From: a virus
Direction: 5' to 3' (one strand)
Virus genome (UHGV): UHGV-0073881
DNA length: 64,000 nucleotides
Shown: in pieces, positions 14,455 through 21,330 of the stretch
How positions within the stretch are numbered: position 1 is the stretch's first letter
How the letters are laid out: each line of letters begins with the position of its first letter
Position numbers and translations under genes: made by a program
The notes under the pieces: model-generated
What the model was told of the DNA's origin: nothing
What the model saw: the letters and a program-made list of their open reading frames with translations, nothing else
The model's database searches: none

Positions 14455-15870
14455 ATGAGCGAATTATTTGACCACTCAAACCTTCATCAAGGTCGTACTG
14501 AAAATGGTGCTGTAAACCACACCTCTTCAATGTCAGCCTCGGTAGACTTCTACAAAGCTGCTGGCTCTAGCCGCAACTACGTAGAGAAACTTCCAAATCT
14601 TTTCTACAAAGCTTTACGGGAAGATATTGATGTTGCTGTACGAATCCTGCTTCATATGCGAGATGCACGAGAAGGTATGGGTGAGCGTAAAGCGTTCAGA
14701 ACTGTTTTGACTGAATCCATCAAAAGCAACATCCTAGACTCTTTCCAAGTTCTACGTATCATGGAAAAGATTTCTGAACTAGGCCGTTATGATGACTTTA
14801 AAATCTTCGTAGGTACTCGATACGAAACAGATGCTTTCAAACAACTTGAAGCAGCACTGTTAGACCCTAACACTGCACAGTTAGCTGCAAAGTGGTTGCC
14901 AAGGGTTAAGCGTCGTCATATGAACTTTGTAAACCGCTTCTGTAAGTTTGCAAAGCTAAGTCAGAAAGAGTACCGACTGTTACTGTCAGCCTTGTCTGAT
15001 ACGGTTGAGCAGAAGATTTCTGCAAATGCTTTTGGAGAGATTGATTACAGTAAAATCCCTTCACTGGCTGCTGCACGTTACCAGAAGCTTTTCGGTCGTA
15101 AAGATGGTGAGCGTTACAAAGCATACATTGAAGCTCTTACTAAAGGTGAGACCAAGATTAATGCTGGTGCAGTTTACCCATACGATGTGATTAAGTCAGT
15201 AAATTACGGAAACGCTACAGTTGCCAATGAACAATGGAAAGCTTTATCAAACTGGATGGCAGATGGTGAAAACATTCTCTGCATGACAGACGTATCAAGC
15301 TCTATGACTTGGGAAAGACACGGTGCAGTTACTGCTTTAGATATTGGTATGTCTCTTGCATTATACGTCGCAGAACGCAACACAGGTTGTTTTAAAGATG
15401 AGTTAATGGTTTACTCCAGCAGACCTCACTTTATTACACTGAGTGGAGATTTAGCACAACGTAAGCGTCAGGTAATGTCTCATGTTGAGTATGGTTCAAC
15501 TAACCTTCAAGCAGCATTTGACAGAATTCTTGAAATTGGTGTTAAAAATGGCTTGACACAAGAAGCTATGCCAAGTAAGCTTATTATCTTCTCTGATATG
15601 GAATTCAATCAGGTTGATGGTGCAAATGGTCTTACTAACTTTGAAGCAATTCAGAGTAAGTACAAAAAAGCTGGATATGAGATGCCACAACTGGTATTCT
15701 GGTACTTAGCTGACCGTAACGGTAATTGCGAAGTATCTGTAAAGGATAACGGAGTAGCAATGGTTTCAGGTTTCTCTCCAGCCACCTTAAAAGCTTTGCT
15801 TGGTGGTGAGAAGTTTGACCCTATCAGCGTAATGCTCAAAGCAGTAATGATTGAACGCTACGATTGGTAA
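14455..15870 (+). CDS. vWA-domain protein with Ro60/TROVE-like architecture (471 aa)
   Basis: C-terminal vWA with MIDAS motif DVSSSM, GSTN and IIFSDMEF segments; order and spacing resemble the Ro60 C-terminal half; N-terminal 270 aa helical domain unassigned. Confidence 0.7.
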   Translation: MSELFDHSNLHQGRTENGAVNHTSSMSASVDFYKAAGSSRNYVEKLPNLFYKALREDIDVAVRILLHMRDAREGMGERKAFRTVLTESIKSNILDSFQVLRIMEKISELGRYDDFKIFVGTRYETDAFKQLEAALLDPNTAQLAAKWLPRVKRRHMNFVNRFCKFAKLSQKEYRLLLSALSDTVEQKISANAFGEIDYSKIPSLAAARYQKLFGRKDGERYKAYIEALTKGETKINAGAVYPYDVIKSVNYGNATVANEQWKALSNWMADGENILCMTDVSSSMTWERHGAVTALDIGMSLALYVAERNTGCFKDELMVYSSRPHFITLSGDLAQRKRQVMSHVEYGSTNLQAAFDRILEIGVKNGLTQEAMPSKLIIFSDMEFNQVDGANGLTNFEAIQSKYKKAGYEMPQLVFWYLADRNGNCEVSVKDNGVAMVSGFSPATLKALLGGEKFDPISVMLKAVMIERYDW

Positions 15871-15978: not shown

Positions 15979-16008
15979 TTGACAAACACTAAAAAATAGT
16001 GTTATAGT
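15979..16008 (+). promoter_or_regulatory. sigma70-like promoter upstream of tRNA array (TTGACA-N17-TTATAG)
   Basis: -35 TTGACA 15979-15984, -10 TTATAGT at 16002-16008, about 28 nt before first tRNA. Confidence 0.5.
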
Positions 16009-16035: not shown

Positions 16036-16112
16036 CTCTGTTTAGCTCAGTTTGGTAGAGCGTTCCGTTTGGGGCGGTAAGGCCAGAGGTTCAAGTCCTC
16101 TAACAGAGACCA
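16036..16112 (+). tRNA. tRNA-Pro (anticodon TGG), isotype tentative
   Basis: acceptor CTCTGTT/AACAGAG, D-stem GCTC/GAGC, T-arm AGAGG-TTCAAGT-CCTCT, anticodon loop TTTGGGG, CCA encoded. Confidence 0.7.
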
Positions 16113-16119
16113 AATTAAT

Positions 16120-16194
16120 GTCGTAGAAGGCAAATGGTTAGCCACCTGACCTTCAATCAGTTGCTCGCGGGTTCGAATCCCGTCTACGACTCCA
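16120..16194 (+). tRNA. tRNA, anticodon TTC (Glu?), isotype uncertain
   Basis: acceptor GTCGTAG/CTACGAC, T-arm GCGGG-TTCGAAT-CCCGT, CCA encoded; anticodon loop CCTTCAA has C at position 33. Confidence 0.6.
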
Positions 16195-16200
16195 AATTTG

Positions 16201-16269
16201 ACAGAAGACCAAATACAGCAAACAACTTTTACTTTTCGCGCATAGAAAACATAAAAAGCTTGGTCTGGT
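16201..16269 (+). repeat. tRNA-array spacer module A (ACAGAAGACC ... ACAGCAA ... GGTCTGGT)
   Basis: conserved 5-prime ACAGAAGACC and 3-prime GGTCTGGT ends with AT-rich core; 4 copies in array. Confidence 0.6.
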
Positions 16270-16279
16270 CATTAAGAAT

Positions 16280-16356
16280 TGCGGGTATAGAGAAAGGGCG
16301 TCTCACATGTCTCATTAGCATGGTATCGGTAGGTTCGACTCCTGCACCCGCCTCCA
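16280..16356 (+). tRNA. tRNA-Met-like (anticodon CAT)
   Basis: acceptor TGCGGGT/ACCCGCC (1:72 mismatch), T-arm GTAGG-TTCGACT-CCTGC, loop CTCATTA, CCA encoded; weak D-stem. Confidence 0.6.
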
Positions 16357-16361
16357 AATTT

Positions 16362-16425
16362 ACAGAAGACCGTTTACAGCAATTCAAACAATTTTATCGG
16401 AAAATTAAAATGAATACGGTCTGGT
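16362..16425 (+). repeat. tRNA-array spacer module B
   Basis: ACAGAAGACCGTTTACAGCAA ... ACGGTCTGGT. Confidence 0.6.
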
Positions 16426-16437
16426 AATGTTAAACAT

Positions 16438-16514
16438 GGTTAGGAAGCACATAAGGCATGTGCGGTCGGCTGTTAACCGAATGGCACAGGGTTCGAATCC
16501 CTGACTAACCGCCA
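16438..16514 (+). tRNA. tRNA-Asn (anticodon GTT)
   Basis: acceptor GGTTAGG/ACTAACC, D-stem GCAC/GTGC, T-arm CAGGG-TTCGAAT-CCCTG, loop CTGTTAA, CCA encoded. Confidence 0.75.
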
Positions 16515-16524
16515 AAATTTAAAT

Positions 16525-16612
16525 GCGTCGTTATCCCGTAGATGGAAGCGGTGGTGACTGTAAATCACTTGTCATTACGACTCGGTAGGTTCGACTCCTT
16601 CACGGCGCACCA
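16525..16612 (+). tRNA. tRNA-Tyr (anticodon GTA), class II with long variable arm
   Basis: 88 nt; acceptor GCGTCGT/ACGGCGC, anticodon stem GGTGA/TCACT loop CTGTAAA, T-loop TTCGACT, CCA encoded. Confidence 0.7.
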
Positions 16613-16618
16613 AATAAA

Positions 16619-16696
16619 GGTTATGTAGTTTAATCTGGTTAAAATACCTCCCTGTCACGGAGGAAGATGTGGGTTCGAATCCCATCGTAACCGCCA
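16619..16696 (+). tRNA. tRNA-Asp (anticodon GTC)
   Basis: acceptor GGTTATG/CGTAACC, anticodon stem CCTCC/GGAGG loop CTGTCAC, T-arm GTGGG-TTCGAAT-CCCAT, CCA encoded. Confidence 0.75.
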
Positions 16697-16754
16697 ATTT
16701 TGAGAAGGGCTTTTTAGCCCCTCCCTTAAAGAGTTCTTGCGAGTATTCTTTAAA

Positions 16755-16835
16755 GGAGCAGAAGACCAAATTCAGCAAGCAACAAAAATATTTCAAGCCA
16801 ATTAATTTGAAAAATTTAAAACTTGGTCTGGTTCC
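16755..16835 (+). repeat. tRNA-array spacer module C
   Basis: GCAGAAGACCAAATTCAGCAA ... CTTGGTCTGGT. Confidence 0.55.
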
Positions 16836-16844
16836 AACAAATTT

Positions 16845-16969
16845 ACAGAAGACCGTTTACAGCAAGTTAAACAATCTAATTCTCTATGAAAGAAAGGGCG
16901 AAGGTTCGATTCCTTCACACGTTACGGCGTGTTGGTGTAATGGCAGCACTTAAGATGATACGGTCTGGT
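16845..16969 (+). repeat. tRNA-array spacer module D, carrying a tRNA-like T-arm and acceptor-like hairpin
   Basis: ACAGAAGACCGTTTACAGCAA ... GAAGG-TTCGATT-CCTTC (16900-16916), ACACG-TTACGG-CGTGT hairpin (16917-16932) ... ACGGTCTGGT; no full cloverleaf. Confidence 0.55.
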
Positions 16970-17118
16970 AATCCTCTTTGCAGTGACTTATGGAGCTAAT
17001 ATATCGTCCCATGAGTGCCGATGAATCTCTTGAGCATGATTCTAGATTAGCTTACTAAGAGATGACTCTACAAACCCTTTAGCAAGGTTTGCGTAGGTTA
17101 CTGCAAAGATGATTTAAT

Positions 17119-17194
17119 GGAAGTGTAGCAGAATGGTGATGCGGCAGACTTTTAATCTGACAGGCGATGGGTTCGAATCCCTCCACTTCTACCA
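17119..17194 (+). tRNA. tRNA-Lys (anticodon TTT)
   Basis: acceptor GGAAGTG/CACTTCT, anticodon loop CTTTTAA, T-loop TTCGAAT, CCA encoded. Confidence 0.7.
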
Positions 17195-17279
17195 AATTCG
17201 CCCTTAATTGAAGAATACCTACTTCGCGGCTGGAAACACCCACGAAAAATCAATTCTTCTCCAAAGGGCAACTTATTAC

Positions 17280-17356
17280 GGTTCAGTCGCAGATAAGGTA
17301 ATGCAAGGGTTTCATAAGCCCTATGAATGTGGGTTCGACTCCCATCTGAACCTCCA
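17280..17356 (+). tRNA. tRNA with anticodon CAT (Met or Ile2)
   Basis: acceptor GGTTCAG/CTGAACC, anticodon stem AGGGT/GCCCT loop TTCATAA, T-arm GTGGG-TTCGACT-CCCAT, CCA encoded. Confidence 0.75.
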
Positions 17357-17358
17357 AT

Positions 17359-17433
17359 TGTGGGTTAGCATAAATGGTAATGCAAACGGCTGATAACCGT
17401 TAGAAGAGGGTTCGATACCCTCACCTACAACCA
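17359..17433 (+). tRNA. tRNA-Ile (anticodon GAT)
   Basis: acceptor TGTGGGT/ACCTACA, D-stem GCA/TGC, anticodon stem AACGG/CCGTT loop CTGATAA, T-arm GAGGG-TTCGATA-CCCTC, CCA encoded. Confidence 0.75.
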
Positions 17434-17448
17434 ATTCCAATAAAGTTG

Positions 17449-17477
17449 TTGACATTAACATGTGACCACTTTATAGT
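17449..17477 (+). promoter_or_regulatory. strong sigma70-like promoter inside tRNA array (TTGACA-N17-TATAGT)
   Basis: -35 TTGACA 17449-17454, 17-nt spacer, -10 TATAGT 17472-17477; followed by about 320 nt with no ORF and no canonical tRNA. Confidence 0.55.
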
Positions 17478-17801
17478 AACTAAAATACTTCATAATATGT
17501 ATAATTCAAACACCAATACATGAGCGTTAGACGTAACACAATGTGGGGAAATTTGTTGTACATATTCTGAATAGTTTTCGTTAGTGTAGCGTCTATTTTG
17601 CAAACTTAAAAATAAATGCAAACGATAATGTTTTTCTGGCAGTAGCTTAATAGGCTAAACACCAGTGAGGTCTTCCAATCCCTCATCAAAGAATTTGGCG
17701 TACTAGCCCACGGTATGATTAATAAAGTGGGCGACATTCTAAAGGGTATCCCTTATGGGGCTTGGCTTAAATGCAATGAGTACCCTTTAAAATGTTAATT
17801 A

Positions 17802-17883
17802 CGGGGCGTATCTCAGCGGTCTTCTAAACCGCCGTTAACCGAGTAAGTGGAGTATGCGGGTTCGAGTCCTGCCGCCTCGACCA
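17802..17883 (+). tRNA. atypical tRNA-like gene (Arg TCT-like anticodon arm), possible pseudogene
   Basis: acceptor CGGGGCG/CGCCTCG, T-arm GCGGG-TTCGAGT-CCTGC, CCA encoded; stem GCGGT/ACCGC with loop CTTCTAA but no canonical D-arm and a 23-nt segment before the T-arm. Confidence 0.4.
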
Positions 17884-17898
17884 ATTTTGGATGAAATC

Positions 17899-18246
17899 AT
17901 GAAGACTTGTATTAGGTGCAAACTTAGCAAGGATGAAAATGATTTCTACATGAAAGATGGTAGGAGAACTCATTCATACTGTAAAAAGTGTGTTAATGAG
18001 CAAACCATAGAAAGACAAAGAGCACTTAAACTTTCAGCTGTTGAGTACAAAGGTGGGGTTTGTCATGATTGTGGTAAAAGGTATCATCCAGCAGTGTATG
18101 ACTTCCATCATTTGAATCCTTCAGAGAAAGATTTTAACATTGGTCATAGAAAAAGTCTTAAGTTCTCTCAGGAGCTAAAGAACGAACTTGACAAATGTGT
18201 TTTGCTATGTTCAAATTGCCATAGGGTAAGACATGCAAAGTATTAG
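17899..18246 (+). CDS. HNH endonuclease (zinc-finger plus HNH) embedded in tRNA array
   Basis: CxxC...CxxC and FHHLNPSEKD...LLCSNCHRVRH motifs; ORF track 17854 start lies inside the tRNA, so start moved to ATG 17899. Confidence 0.8.
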   Translation: MKTCIRCKLSKDENDFYMKDGRRTHSYCKKCVNEQTIERQRALKLSAVEYKGGVCHDCGKRYHPAVYDFHHLNPSEKDFNIGHRKSLKFSQELKNELDKCVLLCSNCHRVRHAKY

Positions 18247-18383
18247 TTAGCAGATTGCTTAGACGACCTTAACGGGTCTCCTGTAAGGAGGTGGTCTGTA
18301 TCTCATGTTTCCAGAGCATGTAAAAATATTCTGAGAAGGGGCTTTACAGTGTTGTGATAATACGGTAAGCTTCGAATTATAAT

Positions 18384-18466
18384 ATGGGACGATGTTAAGA
18401 CTCTAAGGCATGAGCAACGGCTTCCAACACCGTTTCAAAGGGGTTCAACTCCTCCGTCCCATGCCA
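18384..18466 (+). tRNA. tRNA, possibly Trp (anticodon CCA); atypical
   Basis: acceptor ATGGGAC/GTCCCAT, T-loop TTCAACT, CCA encoded; stem AACGG/CCGTT around TTCCAAC; extra nucleotides between acceptor and D region. Confidence 0.45.
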
Positions 18467-18478
18467 AAGTCTTATTAG

Positions 18479-18567
18479 GGGTAGGTAGCGGCTAATGGTA
18501 GCCAAACTGTCTTGAAAACAGTTGCCACTGTAGAGATACGGTGAGGGTTCGACTCCTTTACTTACCG
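18479..18567 (+). tRNA. tRNA-Ser (anticodon TGA), class II
   Basis: acceptor GGTAGGT/ACTTACC, D-stem GGC/GCC, anticodon stem ACTGT/ACAGT loop CTTGAAA, long variable arm, T-loop TTCGACT; CCA not encoded. Confidence 0.7.
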
Positions 18568-18817
18568 CCTAATAAGATTTAAAGCCGCGCTTCGTTCGGA
18601 TGTTGCGTTAGGTTTCACTTCGTGTATTGTCGTACACGATGTTGAGAAAGCACCTAGTAGGTGTCACGGAGAAGAGATAGCATCAAGCTCTCCAAAGGTT
18701 CTAGTCACCGGATTAAACAAGACTATGCAAAGACTGATTAGGTCTTTTTAGATAACTTCTGAGGCAAACTATACCATTGTTGCTTTGGGTCTTGGAAGTT
18801 CTCTACAAAGATTTAAT

Positions 18818-18894
18818 GCACCTATAGCCCAATTGGAAGAGGCAGCAGACTTAGAATCTGTTCAGTGTGAGTTCGACTCTCTCTAGGTGTACCA
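18818..18894 (+). tRNA. tRNA with anticodon TAG (Leu-type anticodon, class I length)
   Basis: acceptor GCACCTA/TAGGTGT, D-arm CCCAATTGGAAGAGG, anticodon stem GCAGA/TCTGT loop CTTAGAA, T-loop TTCGACT, CCA encoded. Confidence 0.6.
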
Positions 18895-18901
18895 AATTAA
18901 T

Positions 18902-18977
18902 GCAGGTGTAGCAAAATGGTTATGCGGCTGACTCTTAATCAGTAAGACGATGGGTTCAATTCCCTCCACCTGTACCA
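18902..18977 (+). tRNA. tRNA with anticodon CTT (Lys?)
   Basis: acceptor GCAGGTG/CACCTGT, anticodon stem GCTGA/TCAGT loop CTCTTAA, T-loop TTCAATT, CCA encoded. Confidence 0.6.
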
Positions 18978-18983
18978 AACATT

Positions 18984-19059
18984 GGGGATGTAGTTTACAT
19001 GGTTAAAACATAAGTTTTGCAAACTTAAGTACAGGGTTCAATTCCATGCTTCTCCACCA
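18984..19059 (+). tRNA. tRNA-Ala (anticodon TGC)
   Basis: acceptor GGGGATG/CTTCTCC with G3:U70 identity pair, anticodon stem TAAGT/ACTTA loop TTTGCAA, T-loop TTCAATT, CCA encoded. Confidence 0.75.
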
Positions 19060-19065
19060 ATTAGT

Positions 19066-19140
19066 GCATCCATAGTTTAAACGGGAAAATTACAGTCTTC
19101 CAAACTGAGGTTGAGGGTTCGATTCCCTCTGGATGCTCCA
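19066..19140 (+). tRNA. tRNA-Gly (anticodon TCC)
   Basis: acceptor GCATCCA/TGGATGC, T-arm GAGGG-TTCGATT-CCCTC, anticodon loop CTTCCAA, CCA encoded. Confidence 0.75.
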
Positions 19141-19146
19141 ATTCAT

Positions 19147-19222
19147 GCTCCTATCGTATAACTGGCTATTACGGTTGTCTTGTAAGCAACTTATCAGGGT
19201 TCGAATCCTTGTGGGAGCACCA
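19147..19222 (+). tRNA. tRNA-Thr (anticodon TGT)
   Basis: acceptor GCTCCTA/TGGGAGC, D-stem CGTA/TACG, anticodon stem GTTGT/GCAAC loop CTTGTAA, T-arm CAGGG-TTCGAAT-CCTTG, CCA encoded. Confidence 0.7.
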
Positions 19223-19316
19223 ATTTGAGGTCAAGTGAAAGACCGCTTGAGTCAACTGAAGACCGTAACAAATTCCACGGAGTTGAGTTAGCGGCACAAC
19301 TTCAGACCTCTTTAAA

Positions 19317-19391
19317 GCTCGCTTAGTTTATATGGTAAAGCCCCATCCTTACAAGTTGGTGAAGAAGGTTCAAGTCCTTCAGCGAGTACCA
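19317..19391 (+). tRNA. tRNA-Val (anticodon TAC)
   Basis: acceptor GCTCGCT/AGCGAGT, T-arm GAAGG-TTCAAGT-CCTTC, anticodon loop CTTACAA, CCA encoded. Confidence 0.7.
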
Positions 19392-19392
19392 A

Positions 19393-19470
19393 GTTCCAGT
19401 ATCCCAATTGGCAGAGGATGCAAGCTCAAACCTTGTATTAGTGACGGTTCGAATCCGTCTTGGAACACCA
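19393..19470 (+). tRNA. tRNA with anticodon CAA (Leu-type anticodon, class I length)
   Basis: acceptor GTTCCAG/TTGGAAC, D-stem ATCC/GGAT with loop CAATTGGCAGA, anticodon stem GCAAG/CTTGT loop CTCAAAC, T-arm GACGG-TTCGAAT-CCGTC, CCA encoded. Confidence 0.65.
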
Positions 19471-19487
19471 AATTTTAGGAGATTCCT

Positions 19488-19700
19488 ATGAAGCCTTATG
19501 GTAGACACGGTAAAGTTGAAATTGCAAGTTGTGGTTGCTGTGCTTCTCACGATGGTGAAGAAGATTACTACAAGTGGCGTACAGACCATCGTAGACGCTT
19601 TCTCAGAAGAGATAAGAAGAAAGCTAGACAGGAATCTCGAAAAGATATTGCAGAATTAGTTCAAATGGATAGAGCAGCAACCTACGAAGTTGTTAGTTAG
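19488..19700 (+). CDS. hypothetical small basic protein (70 aa); 3-prime end overlaps tRNA-Arg
   Basis: ORF track; RBS AGGAG 7 nt before ATG; last 50 nt overlap the tRNA at 19650. Confidence 0.35.
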   Translation: MKPYGRHGKVEIASCGCCASHDGEEDYYKWRTDHRRRFLRRDKKKARQESRKDIAELVQMDRAATYEVVS

Positions 19701-19723
19701 GGGTTCGAATCCCTTATTCTGCA
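19650..19723 (+). tRNA. tRNA-Arg (anticodon ACG)
   Basis: acceptor GCAGAAT/ATTCTGC, D-stem GTTC/GAGC, anticodon stem GCAAC/GTTGT loop CTACGAA, T-arm AGGGG-TTCGAAT-CCCTT; CCA not encoded. Confidence 0.75.
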
Positions 19724-19744
19724 CAAATTTTAGAAGGTAATTAT

Positions 19745-19972
19745 ATGCGTAAACTCATTATTGAAAGGCATAAAGATGCTGACAAGATTGAAACAACACA
19801 AGTTGGGGACACTGACTTCATTCTTGTAGGTTGGAAATGTGACCCAATAGCAGCTATGAAGGTTGTTCATGGTTTTGCAGGAATTGAATTTAATCAAATC
19901 ATATTTGAAACGCTATTACCAGAAAATCAGGATACGTGTAATAACGCATATATCCTGACAAGAGTTCGTTAG
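19745..19972 (+). CDS. hypothetical protein (75 aa) between tRNA genes
   Basis: ORF track; ATG start; stop abuts tRNA-Gln. Confidence 0.4.
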   Translation: MRKLIIERHKDADKIETTQVGDTDFILVGWKCDPIAAMKVVHGFAGIEFNQIIFETLLPENQDTCNNAYILTRVR

Positions 19973-20046
19973 GGGATTAGTTTACAAGGTTAAAACCTCG
20001 GTCTTTGAAATCGAAGAAGTTGGTTCAATTCCAACATCCCCCGCCA
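19971..20046 (+). tRNA. tRNA-Gln (anticodon TTG)
   Basis: acceptor AGGGGAT/ATCCCCC (1:72 mismatch), anticodon stem TCGGT/ATCGA loop CTTTGAA, T-arm GTTGG-TTCAATT-CCAAC, CCA encoded. Confidence 0.7.
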
Positions 20047-20048
20047 AT

Positions 20049-20127
20049 GCTCCATTACTCCAATTGGCAGAGAGGCCAGACTTAAAATCTGTGTTATGTA
20101 TCGGTTCGAATCCGATATGGAGTACCA
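20049..20127 (+). tRNA. tRNA with anticodon TAA (Leu-type anticodon, class I length)
   Basis: acceptor GCTCCAT/ATGGAGT, D-arm CCAATTGGCAGAG, anticodon loop CTTAAAA, T-arm ATCGG-TTCGAAT-CCGAT, CCA encoded. Confidence 0.65.
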
Positions 20128-20133
20128 AATATT

Positions 20134-20209
20134 AGCAGTGTAGCATAACTGGCAATGCTCCAGCCTCTGAAGCTGAAAGATTAAGGTTCAAATCCTTACA
20201 CTGCTGCCA
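20134..20209 (+). tRNA. tRNA with anticodon CTG (Gln)
   Basis: acceptor AGCAGTG/CACTGCT, D-stem GCAT/ATGC, anticodon loop CTCTGAA, T-arm TTAAG-GTTCAAAT-CCTTA, CCA encoded. Confidence 0.65.
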
Positions 20210-20240
20210 CTTCTAAGGGTTCTTACGAGAGTCCTTAAAT

Positions 20241-20317
20241 GTGGCCTTATCATAAATGGATAATGACCCATGCTGTGAACATGGTCTATACGGGTTCGAT
20301 TCCCGTAGGTCACCCCA
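20241..20317 (+). tRNA. tRNA-His (anticodon GTG)
   Basis: acceptor GTGGCCT/AGGTCAC with C73, D-stem TCAT/ATGA, anticodon stem CCATG/CATGG loop CTGTGAA, T-arm ACGGG-TTCGATT-CCCGT, CCA encoded. Confidence 0.75.
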
Positions 20318-20324
20318 ATTTTAA

Positions 20325-20401
20325 TAGCTCAATTAGCTTATATGGTTAAAGCGCGTGTCTGAAAAACATGAGAACAGGGTTCAAATCCCGATGGGCTACC
20401 A
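20325..20401 (+). tRNA. tRNA-Phe (anticodon GAA), irregular acceptor/D junction
   Basis: anticodon stem CGTGT/ACATG loop CTGAAAA, D-stem GCTT/AAGC, acceptor TAGCTCA/TGGGCTA, T-loop TTCAAAT, CCA at 20399-20401. Confidence 0.6.
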
Positions 20402-20417
20402 ACTTTATAGGTGCATA

Positions 20418-21152
20418 ATGAAAGAGATGACAGGACAAGGTAAAGAGATTTTCAATCTCCTTAAATCCGGTAACGGGTTCTCTAACCCTCTTATTACTGG
20501 TGCAGCAGTTCTTGGTGGTACAGTTGCTGCTTCTCAGTCATTAATCACTTCAATTAGTTCTGTATCAGACCCAGCTACCCAGCAAATCCTTATTGCTGCT
20601 GGCTTGACAACTGCCTTACTAAGCAGCTTTACAACAAGCCTTGGTAGCACCACTTCAACGACAACTACTTTAACTGACTATGGACAGAAGTCTGTAGATG
20701 AGTTTTCACAGCGTATGCAGGTAGCCAAAGGATACTCTAATGTTATGGGAGCAGCGGGTGAACAAGTTGGATGTACACCGTTTAGTGGAATCATGGGAGT
20801 TGCTACTGAATACGGTAACAAGGCTATGGATTTGATTAACACCTCCATAGATGCCGTAAACAGCGTTCTAAGCGACTTACAGGATGCAATTGATAAAGGA
20901 CTAGCAACCATCTCTGACCTCGCTACACAAGCTGTTACAGCGATTAATGAAGGTATGGCAAAGATTACTGCCTACGCTAATGAAGTGGCTCAGATGATTG
21001 CAGACGAAGCAGCAATGATTGCAGAGTATCTAAAAACCAATATTAATGGTTTCCTTGCAAATGTTTTACCAGATTGGTTTAACGATGATTGTAAGACGGG
21101 TGTAATTGATACAATTGCAACTCCAGAGATGAAAGAAGCTCTAAACAAATAA
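20418..21152 (+). CDS. hypothetical Ala/Ser/Thr-rich protein embedded in tRNA operon (about 244 aa)
   Basis: ORF track 20355-21152; start moved to first ATG after tRNA-Phe (MKEMTGQ) with AGGTG RBS. Confidence 0.6.
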   Translation: MKEMTGQGKEIFNLLKSGNGFSNPLITGAAVLGGTVAASQSLITSISSVSDPATQQILIAAGLTTALLSSFTTSLGSTTSTTTTLTDYGQKSVDEFSQRMQVAKGYSNVMGAAGEQVGCTPFSGIMGVATEYGNKAMDLINTSIDAVNSVLSDLQDAIDKGLATISDLATQAVTAINEGMAKITAYANEVAQMIADEAAMIAEYLKTNINGFLANVLPDWFNDDCKTGVIDTIATPEMKEALNK

Positions 21153-21155
21153 TTT

Positions 21156-21248
21156 GGAAGATTAACCCTAAAAGGTAAGGGAGCAGTTTGCTAAACTGCC
21201 AGTAGCTGAGAAATTGGTGTACCAGTTCAAGTCTGGTATCTTCCTCCA
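21156..21248 (+). tRNA. tRNA-Ser (anticodon GCT), class II
   Basis: 93 nt; acceptor GGAAGAT/ATCTTCC, D-stem CCC/GGG, anticodon stem GCAGT/ACTGC loop TTGCTAA, long variable arm, T-arm ACCAG-TTCAAGT-CTGGT, CCA encoded. Confidence 0.75.
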
Positions 21249-21254
21249 AATTTT

Positions 21255-21330
21255 GCATTGGTGTCAGAAATGGATATGTACCTGTCTGCAAAACAGGTTT
21301 ATGAGGGTTCGAGTCCCTTCCAATGCTCCA
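21255..21330 (+). tRNA. tRNA-Cys (anticodon GCA)
   Basis: acceptor GCATTGG/CCAATGC, anticodon stem CCTGT/ACAGG loop CTGCAAA, T-arm GAGGG-TTCGAGT-CCCTT, CCA encoded. Confidence 0.8.

Follow-up and report, generated by a model that had tools for sequence, protein, structure and literature searches.

We analyzed a tRNA array carried by a 64,000-nt stretch of viral DNA (UHGV virus genome UHGV-0073881; hereafter the window, meaning the whole stretch), with particular attention to three of its genes that bear leucine anticodons and have a short variable region. The window is a Felix-O1-like phage (Ounavirinae): about 260 phage records align to its tRNA region with 80–99% identity, and these records belong to Felix-O1-like myoviruses (Ounavirinae: Felixounavirus, Mooglevirus) that infect E. 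coli, Salmonella, Shigella, and Citrobacter. All three genes already carry a tRNA-Leu label in about 260 phage records, and in the Felix O1 GenBank record (AF320576) they are 78, 78, and 79 nt long. The original prediction, made from the letters of the window, had described tRNAs of 77–79 nt with anticodons TAG, CAA, and TAA and a short variable region; the gene calls of ARAGORN and Rfam matched it in coordinates, anticodons, length, and variable region (Table 1). All three genes matched the cloverleaf of the Rfam tRNA model (RF00005; gathering threshold = 29 bits) end to end, over model positions 1–71, and their lengths include an encoded CCA.

Table 1. Features of the tRNA array and its surroundings in the window (aa, amino acids; ORF, open reading frame).
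Feature	Coordinates	Strand	Length and basis
tRNA-Leu(UAG)	18818-18894	+	77 nt; ARAGORN, Rfam 54.1 bits with alignment, arm split
tRNA-Leu(CAA)	19393-19470	+	78 nt; ARAGORN, Rfam 44.0 bits, arm split
tRNA-Leu(UAA)	20049-20127	+	79 nt; ARAGORN, Rfam 47.5 bits, arm split
tRNA array holding the three Leu genes	16036-21330	+	ARAGORN, Rfam; synteny with Sf14 and Felix O1
tRNA-Glu(UUC)	16120-16194	+	Rfam 53.7 bits; missed by default ARAGORN
tRNA-Tyr(GUA), long arm kept	16525-16612	+	88 nt; relaxed ARAGORN; 98.9% identity to annotated Sf14 tRNA-Tyr
tRNA-Ser(UGA), 7-bp variable-arm hairpin kept	18480-18569	+	90 nt; ARAGORN, folding
tRNA-Ser(GCU), long arm kept	21156-21248	+	93 nt; ARAGORN
Promoter-like site (TTGACA, 18-nt spacer, TATAGT with TG)	15979-16008	+	Consensus match only
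471-aa ORF	14455-15870	+	DUF7788 (E = 4.7e-43), DUF2828 (E = 3.9e-27)
tRNA-like element	17802-17880	+	Rfam tRNA 31.7 bits; missed by ARAGORN
HNH endonuclease-like ORF	17854-18246	+	130 aa; label in related phage records
Cys-rich, strongly basic ORF	19488-19700	+	70 aa
tRNA-Arg(ACG)	19650-19724		
ORF inserted relative to Sf14	19745-19972	+	75 aa

Splitting the three tRNAs arm by arm gave variable regions of UCAGU (5 nt) in the UAG gene, AUUAGU (6 nt) in the CAA gene, and GUUAUGU (7 nt) in the UAA gene, and a folding check revealed no variable-arm stem that could form in any of them. All three genes thus fall outside the definition of a canonical bacterial class II tRNALeu (variable arm >10 nt with a stem-loop). 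The host genes leuW, leuX, and leuZ of E. coli are 85–87 nt long with variable regions of 13, 13, and 15 nt, in line with the premise that bacterial tRNA-Leu is normally class II, to which the short form is a sizeable exception. The D arm common to the three Leu tRNAs reads NNN-C-AAUUGG-(A/C)-A-G-A-NNN, and the shared string CCAATTGG(A/C)AGAG, pointed out at the outset, is present in each. The UAG tRNA carries U8 A9, C12-G23, C13, A14 A15 G18 G19 A20a, U48, and A73, and the CAA and UAA tRNAs have the same D-arm architecture together with A73 and U48. The anticodons UAG, CAA, and UAA read CUA, UUG, and UUA rather than stop codons, which sets these tRNAs apart from suppressor or recoding tRNAs. 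We also observed that the anticodon loop of the UAG tRNA (CUUAGAA), the most frequent one among viral short-arm Leu(UAG) tRNAs, has A37 after G36, whereas the loop of host leuW (UUUAGGU) has G37. A G at position 37 is normally methylated by TrmD, and the phage tRNALeu(UAG) with its A37 is therefore predicted not to be a TrmD substrate.

Next, we examined the leucine identity of the three tRNAs. In E. coli, the leucine identity set comprises A73, U8-A14, A15-U48, the placement of G18G19, A20a, and the elbow pairs (PMC9976931; PMC6614811), and leucyl-tRNA synthetase (LeuRS) needs neither the anticodon nor the long arm: minimal tRNALeu variants that lack the arm continue to be charged and edited (PMC9976931). 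All three window tRNAs carry A73, U8, A14, A15, G18G19, A20a, U48, and U54..A58, and the Leu-specific D-loop position of G18G19 is kept. The T loops (UUCGACU, UUCGAAU, and UUCGAAU for UAG, CAA, and UAA, respectively) have nucleotides that would fit the elbow pairs G18-U55, G19-C56, and U54-A58, and the anticodon loops, placed identically by ARAGORN and Rfam, are 7 nt long with U33 and A37. The full 17-nt Leu-type D arm with its 3-bp stem occurred in only 8 of 1829 sampled non-Leu tRNAs, all of them Glu, Gln, or Ile; the D-loop string alone (U8-N5-AAYUGGNANA) was rejected as a Leu marker, being present in 59 of the 1829. The 3:70 pair is A-U in the UAG tRNA and U-A in both the CAA and UAA tRNAs; the absence of G3-U70 and of a long arm therefore excludes alanine and serine identity. 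tRNAscan-SE isotype models published in 2025 for the orthologues in Shigella phage Sf14 rank Leu on top in all three cases (TAG: Leu 67.4, next Ile2 65.7 and Lys 63.4; CAA: Leu 49.1, next best 36.1; TAA: Leu 60.2, next best 54.2; PMC12482277), with neither other anticodons nor a long arm assigned. The three genes are correctly labeled tRNA-Leu. The original prediction had left two options side by side, a wrong isotype or unusual phage Leu tRNAs; the isotype scores of the Sf14 orthologues speak against the former, and those scores, the identity elements, the D-arm architecture, and the covariation described below all favor the latter.

Since single-sequence folding of the Leu tRNAs was unhelpful, we relied on covariation to evaluate the short-arm form as a structural type. 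When 68 distinct short-arm Leu tRNAs of viruses, the window's three among them, were aligned, 98.0% of cells were compatible with cloverleaf pairing (shuffled: 59.5%; slid controls: 33–46%), the covariation score was 1.007 (shuffled: 0.229; reached by 0 of 500 shuffles), and 19 of 20 stem pairs showed changes on both sides. The short-arm form also has a core of its own. The signature A9, C12-G23, C13 is present in all three window Leu tRNAs, and the class II core (G9, G12-C23, purine 13) is absent from all three; in the sampled long-arm Leu tRNAs the frequencies were 97% for G9, 98% for G/A13, 94% for G12, and 96% for C23. C13 occurred in 77% of viral and 91% of genomic short-arm Leu tRNAs and in none of the long-arm sample. 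With short- and long-arm samples drawn by one common D-loop and T-loop pattern, the core identity of the window tRNAs was higher to short-arm viral Leu tRNAs (median 0.63–0.68; maximum 0.89 outside the family) than to long-arm ones (median 0.58–0.60; Mann-Whitney p <= 7e-17), and the nearest neighbor was of the same arm class in 82% of cases (permuted: 54%). Core identity to the same-anticodon E. coli genes was 0.52–0.65. An independent origin by deletion from the host isoacceptors is unlikely, given that identity to leuW, leuX, and leuZ is lower than that to unrelated short-arm tRNAs. The likeness between phage and actinobacterial short-arm tRNAs, seen over about 60 aligned positions, may stem either from shared ancestry or from independent arrival at a single workable core.

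The three genes had also been described as paralogous, which is weakly supported. Their shared core identity is 69–75%, and the best-match pairs among the window tRNAs are Leu pairs at 0.73–0.74; the TAG-CAA pair reaches only 0.67, which for TAG is just under its identity to tRNA-Lys(UUU) (0.68), and each Leu tRNA is about equally near to short-arm Leu tRNAs of unrelated sources.

Within the phage family, identity reaches at least 99% for the Leu(UAA) gene in 216 of 264 phage records and for the Leu(CAA) gene in 160 of 292 matching records, while the surrounding 2 kb is mostly 80–95% identical. Because these two genes are near-invariant while their flanks diverge, they appear to be under purifying selection. 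The Leu(UAG) gene is more variable, with at least two alleles in the family. Compared to the window, the Sf14 genes differ at 3 (TAG), 0 (CAA), and 1 (TAA) nt. A search of 5,426 complete E. coli genomes gave no match to the phage Leu(UAA) gene, which is thus neither a host gene nor a prophage gene in them. In Salmonella phage FG1m (PP068123.1, 5999-6076), we noticed a hybrid Leu tRNA gene whose acceptor stem is unpaired: its sequence follows Leu(CAA) from the 5′ end up to the first bases of the T stem's 3′ strand and Leu(UAA) from there on, over the rest of the T stem and the acceptor strand on the 3′ side. Judging from the sequence, this looks like a deletion through recombination of two Leu copies across the shared GGTTCGAATCCG, which took out tRNA-Arg(ACG), tRNA-Gln(UUG), and the ORFs in between.

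The short form is widespread beyond this family. BLAST revealed short tRNA-Leu genes in T5-like Demerecviridae (Aeromonas phage AhP_Mru1, with UAG, CAA, and UAA genes all of 77 nt), in Herelleviridae (Lactobacillus phage LpeD), in Mycobacterium Bixzunavirus phages (76, 75, and 74 nt), and in Streptomyces, Enterococcus, Synechococcus, Erwinia, Acinetobacter, and Vibrio phages. The T5-like phage EPS7 (NC_010583.1) also has a short Leu(UAA) with a 5-nt loop. Two classic coliphages considered as further cases were rejected, the tRNALeu(UAA) of T4 (87 nt) and the tRNALeu(UAG) of T5 (85 nt) being long-armed. A pattern for the short form (Leu-type D loop, N-A-N anticodon, short spacing to the T loop, A73) matched at least 120 loci in IMG/VR, and pooling the listed loci with the window and the named phages gave a set of 165 unique short-arm Leu tRNAs. 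A variable region of 5 nt predominated (142 tRNAs), with 19 tRNAs at 6 nt, 3 at 7 nt, and 1 at 4 nt; A73 was present in 164 and U48, which the search pattern does not impose, in 162 of the 165. When the spacing was widened to admit both classes, 17 of 120 were short-armed among the matches listed, and in tRNA-rich viral loci about 20–25% of Leu genes were short in the pattern-matched sample. In species-representative genomes, among the matches listed, 81 of 117 short-pattern loci hold a single tRNA, mostly in Actinomycetota (Nocardia, Mycobacterium, Rhodococcus, Corynebacterium, Bifidobacterium), and another 21 are tRNA arrays. The single chromosomal short-arm tRNALeu genes all have a 5-nt loop, A73, U48, and C13. 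It follows that "unusual", as the genes were tentatively described at first, overstates the case, the short form being common in phages and Actinomycetota and already in the literature. Intermediate cases were also seen: EPS7 tRNA-Leu(tag), 81 nt, has a 9-nt variable region (UCUUCGGGU), between the short (5–7) and long (13–15) forms, and three further 9-nt cases lie at loci L170 and L344. Separately, the AhP_Mru1 array that holds three short-arm Leu tRNAs also holds a tRNA with anticodon UCA (796-869), labeled "suppressor tRNA" in the record and called SeC (selenocysteine) by ARAGORN.

The missing arm is a feature of leucine tRNAs in particular. In the window array, the Leu tRNAs are short in three of three cases while all Ser and Tyr tRNAs are long, a Leu-specific shortness that is not due to chance. 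Likewise, none of 97 tRNA-Ser genes in loci with short Leu genes was short, indicating that loss of the arm is specific to Leu. The long arm is a major identity element for seryl-tRNA synthetase and is dispensable for E. coli LeuRS (PMC9976931); arm loss would be tolerated for Leu alone because, of the synthetases that act on long-arm tRNAs, LeuRS is the only one that can dispense with the arm.

The array itself comprises 23 tRNAs with ARAGORN default settings and at least 25 once the tRNA-Glu and tRNA-Tyr of Table 1 are added; the latter was missed by default ARAGORN and gave no Rfam report at E <= 0.01. The genes are tightly packed: tRNA-Leu(CAA) begins 1 nt after tRNA-Val, tRNA-Leu(UAA) begins 2 nt after tRNA-Gln(UUG), and spacers are frequently just 1–8 nt. 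Because the spacers are so short, the array is probably transcribed as polycistronic precursors. A strong promoter-like site (Table 1) lies 28 nt upstream of the first tRNA; promoter-like sites in the array region were no more numerous than the shuffled expectation.

Several other elements lie in or beside the array. The tRNA-like element, unannotated in related records, has a 7-bp acceptor stem, 4 nt in place of the D arm, and an anticodon-like hairpin (GCGGU-CUUCUAA-ACCGC; UCU, Arg). Its variable region contains 20 inserted nt, the T arm is normal, and CCA is present. The element is adjoined by the HNH endonuclease-like ORF, for which no Pfam family matched, and the two fill the slot that an ordinary 77-nt tRNA-Arg(UCU) occupies in Sf14. 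This cassette is 96–97% identical in 27 records including Felix O1, and the element may be a decayed tRNA-Arg, an odd but working tRNA, or something left behind by endonuclease homing. Two small ORFs interleave with and overlap tRNAs of the array, and neither had a Pfam match: the Cys-rich one overlaps tRNA-Arg(ACG) by 51 nt, and the 75-aa one is an insertion compared to Sf14, where the gap between Arg(ACG) and Gln(UUG) is 10 nt. Directly upstream of the array lies the 471-aa ORF, whose counterpart in FG1m is labeled "RNA-binding protein" and whose position beside the tRNA array is conserved.

We conclude that the three genes most probably encode functional leucine isoacceptors of a Felix-O1-like phage, built on a short-variable-loop (class I/type I) plan. 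This conclusion draws on the genes themselves and their architecture, identity nucleotides, conservation, covariation, and distribution. Expression, charging by the enterobacterial LeuRS, decoding range, and a reason for the missing arm are what we infer from them. The three tRNAs would be transcribed along with the + strand array and released by host RNase P and 3′ trimming, as the 1–8 nt spacers and the encoded CCA suggest. The host LeuRS would then charge them with leucine through A73 and the elbow and core elements; such charging is expected because engineered arm-less E. coli tRNALeu is charged. In decoding, the UAA tRNA would read UUA and UUG, the CAA tRNA UUG, and the UAG tRNA CUA as well as other CUN codons by wobble. 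Together they could provide a near-complete Leu decoding set of the phage's own, in a phage of 39% GC facing a host tRNA pool geared to CUG. The missing arm would be a lineage trait of a tRNALeu type widespread in phages, tRNA arrays, and Actinomycetota, accompanied by a remodeled core in which A9, C12-G23, and C13 would replace G9, G12-C23, and R13 (R, purine).

Codon usage agrees with this proposal in part. In the window (39% GC), leucine codons are TTA 23%, TTG 18%, CTT 28%, CTC 5%, CTA 9%, and CTG 17%. In E. coli, CUG makes up about half of the Leu codons. A comparison of CUA, UUG, and UUA with the host had been suggested from the start, and Sf14, for which it is published, shows significantly higher use of TTA and CTA than its host but no higher use of TTG (PMC12482277), such that the first two codons fit and compensation for UUG is weak.

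The weak compensation for UUG is one of several points that weigh against three working leucine adaptors. The T stem of the UAG tRNA has a U50-U64 mismatch and the UAA tRNA a C27-U43 mismatch. Folding z-scores are unremarkable (+0.08, -1.78, and -1.59 for UAG, CAA, and UAA, respectively), and the minimum-free-energy fold, which is the cloverleaf for the UAG tRNA, is not the cloverleaf for the UAA tRNA. The lead of Leu over Ile2 and Lys for the Sf14 TAG orthologue is narrow (PMC12482277), and the literature searched held no reports of expression, processing, or aminoacylation for the three genes. Lastly, in vitro, E. coli LeuRS is reported to have left the short-arm tRNALeu(CAA) from Streptomyces coelicolor uncharged (PMC6614811), and because of this failure the charging of a natural short-arm tRNALeu by an enterobacterial LeuRS is not a given. 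The Streptomyces tRNA has C48 rather than the U48 of the window tRNAs (PMC6614811), which is a possible reason for the failure.

We weighed other explanations for the short arm and for the Leu label. The short arm could be an adaptation to tRNA conflict, making the phage Leu tRNAs invisible to a nuclease or modifying toxin that recognizes the long arm or the class II shape; the enzyme could be encoded by the host or a prophage, or by the phage itself against the host pool, and the phage would go on decoding Leu after host tRNALeu had been inactivated. Three reports document phage tRNAs of other isotypes that evade tRNA-targeting defenses (PMC10264068, PMC11555353, PMC11464382), and human SLFN11 is reported to be a selective cleaver of type II tRNAs. 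The phage Leu set can also cover all or nearly all Leu codons, beyond the rare ones, and the anticodon loops of its UAG and CAA tRNAs are likewise unlike those of the host. T4 infection is said to lead to cleavage of host tRNALeu (attributed to Yudelevich, 1971), on which a literature search gave nothing usable. We nevertheless consider a conflict origin unlikely: literature searches found no bacterial or phage enzyme that uses the long arm of tRNALeu as a determinant, the bacterial Schlafen characterized to date cleaves in the anticodon arm, T4 and T5 have long-arm Leu tRNAs in the same host, and the short form makes up only about a fifth to a quarter of the Leu genes in tRNA-rich viral loci. 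Moreover, the short architecture belongs to ordinary chromosomal tRNALeu in many Actinomycetota, for which no conflict is needed. A related and similarly doubtful idea is that short-arm tRNALeu is a mobile lineage passing among phages, tRNA arrays, and Actinomycetota, for which the arm would serve as a self/non-self mark during infection; it would be kept in hosts that have only long-arm forms, such as enterobacteria, as a distinct pool immune to a putative arm-recognizing factor, which could be a nuclease, toxin, or regulator from the host, a prophage, or the phage. Nothing in the analysis spoke directly for such protection.

The genes could, on the other hand, be tRNA-shaped without working as Leu adaptors in enterobacteria, namely relics of tRNAs gained by horizontal transfer, charged poorly or not at all, that would be kept for some other role, such as punctuation in processing of the array transcript, substrates for recombination or homing endonucleases, or decoys. 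The failure of E. coli LeuRS on a natural short-arm tRNALeu, the stem mismatches and weak folding energies, the reported lower stability of Sf14 tRNAs relative to host tRNAs, and the existence of degenerate members (the tRNA-like element and the hybrid Leu gene in FG1m) all fit such relics. What makes them improbable in our judgment is that the TAA and CAA genes stay near-invariant in about 260 phages while the flanks diverge, that the genes retain all Leu identity nucleotides, an encoded CCA, and anticodon loops with U33 and a purine at 37, and that compensatory changes maintain all four stems across the short-arm Leu family, which is not expected of relics. Finally, the isotype or anticodon could be mis-assigned, with another amino acid charged or the loop mis-registered and the Leu label an artifact of three bases. 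The closeness of Ile2 and Lys to Leu for Sf14 TAG and the fact that 13 other Sf14 tRNAs score highest for an isotype unlike their anticodon (PMC12482277) would allow for this. We regard it as highly improbable, given that ARAGORN and Rfam agree on the anticodon loops, Leu is the top model for all three orthologues, a Leu-type D arm with A73 is essentially Leu-only, the marks of Ala (G3-U70) and Ser (long arm) are absent, and the Ile, Lys, Val, Met, and Phe synthetases need anticodon bases that are absent here (PMC9976931).

Taking the genes as short-arm leucine isoacceptors, a possible worry about their annotation is settled, and the textbook statement that bacterial tRNALeu is class II has a large and little-discussed exception that reaches well-studied coliphage and Salmonella phage families. 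E. coli LeuRS is reported to charge "only type II", yet three short-arm Leu tRNAs with the complete E. coli identity set are conserved in phages that grow on E. coli, Salmonella, and Shigella; either the enterobacterial LeuRS accepts short-arm substrates when A15-U48 and other elements are right, or these conserved genes serve a role other than ordinary decoding. Short-arm Leu tRNAs are also candidate scaffolds for compact suppressor or orthogonal tRNAs, and the isotype models, trained on cellular tRNAs, give poor scores for phage tRNAs.

Among known short-arm leucine tRNAs, the type I tRNALeu(CAA) of S. coelicolor has been characterized biochemically (Fan et al., NAR 2019, PMC6614811). The window tRNAs resemble it, with its 5-nt variable loop, in A73, U8-A14, and the AAUUGGNAGA D loop, and their loops of 5–7 nt fit the reported minimum of 5 nt for charging (PMC6614811). 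They differ from it in that two of the three have 6- and 7-nt loops, in U48, and in that all three phage isoacceptors are short compared to one of five in S. coelicolor; in addition, the host here is an enterobacterium without short-arm tRNALeu. The chromosomal short-arm tRNALeu of Nocardia, Mycobacterium, and Corynebacterium has A9, C13, and an NNAGU loop as here, and its D arm is one base away from that of the window UAG tRNA, the Nocardia and Mycobacterium gene in this comparison being tRNALeu(UAA). A short-variable-loop tRNALeu(TAG) is mentioned, in one sentence, in work on Mycobacterium tRNA clusters (Behra et al., BMC Evol Biol 2019, PMC6582537). As in that cluster, the window has short-arm tRNALeu in a dense, probably mobile array with an HNH endonuclease gene, and the short form differs from the "normal" long-arm isoacceptor of the host; unlike the cluster, which is an array on a bacterial chromosome, the window belongs to a lytic phage of enterobacteria and has three genes of this kind.

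Engineered arm-less E. coli tRNALeu (Larkin et al. 2002; Asahara et al.) established that LeuRS needs A73 and the D/T elbow (PMC9976931). Those variants are class II deletions with a G9/G12-C23/R13 core, whereas the phage tRNAs are natural and have an A9/C12-G23/C13 core. Animal mitochondrial tRNALeu, compared from the literature, shares the short variable loop and A73 and A14 as identity elements; it differs in its degenerate AT-rich cloverleaves and dedicated mitochondrial LeuRS, and no sequence relationship is implied. Our literature searches found no paper stating that phage tRNALeu genes, including those of enterobacterial phages, are short-armed, and neither the Sf14 tRNA paper (PMC12482277) nor the eLife phage-tRNA paper mentions the variable arm. 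The closest counterparts in the same host are the Leu genes of T4 (UAA) and T5 (UAG), which are likewise phage isoacceptors for A/U-ending codons and sit in tRNA arrays that also hold homing endonucleases; in contrast to the window genes, they have variable arms of 15 and 13 nt and a G9 core, and their core identity to the window Leu tRNAs is 0.52–0.66. Set beside these systems, the genes themselves have long been annotated and the short form was already known, and the new interest, a modest curiosity, lies in the extent of the short form and in its distinct core.

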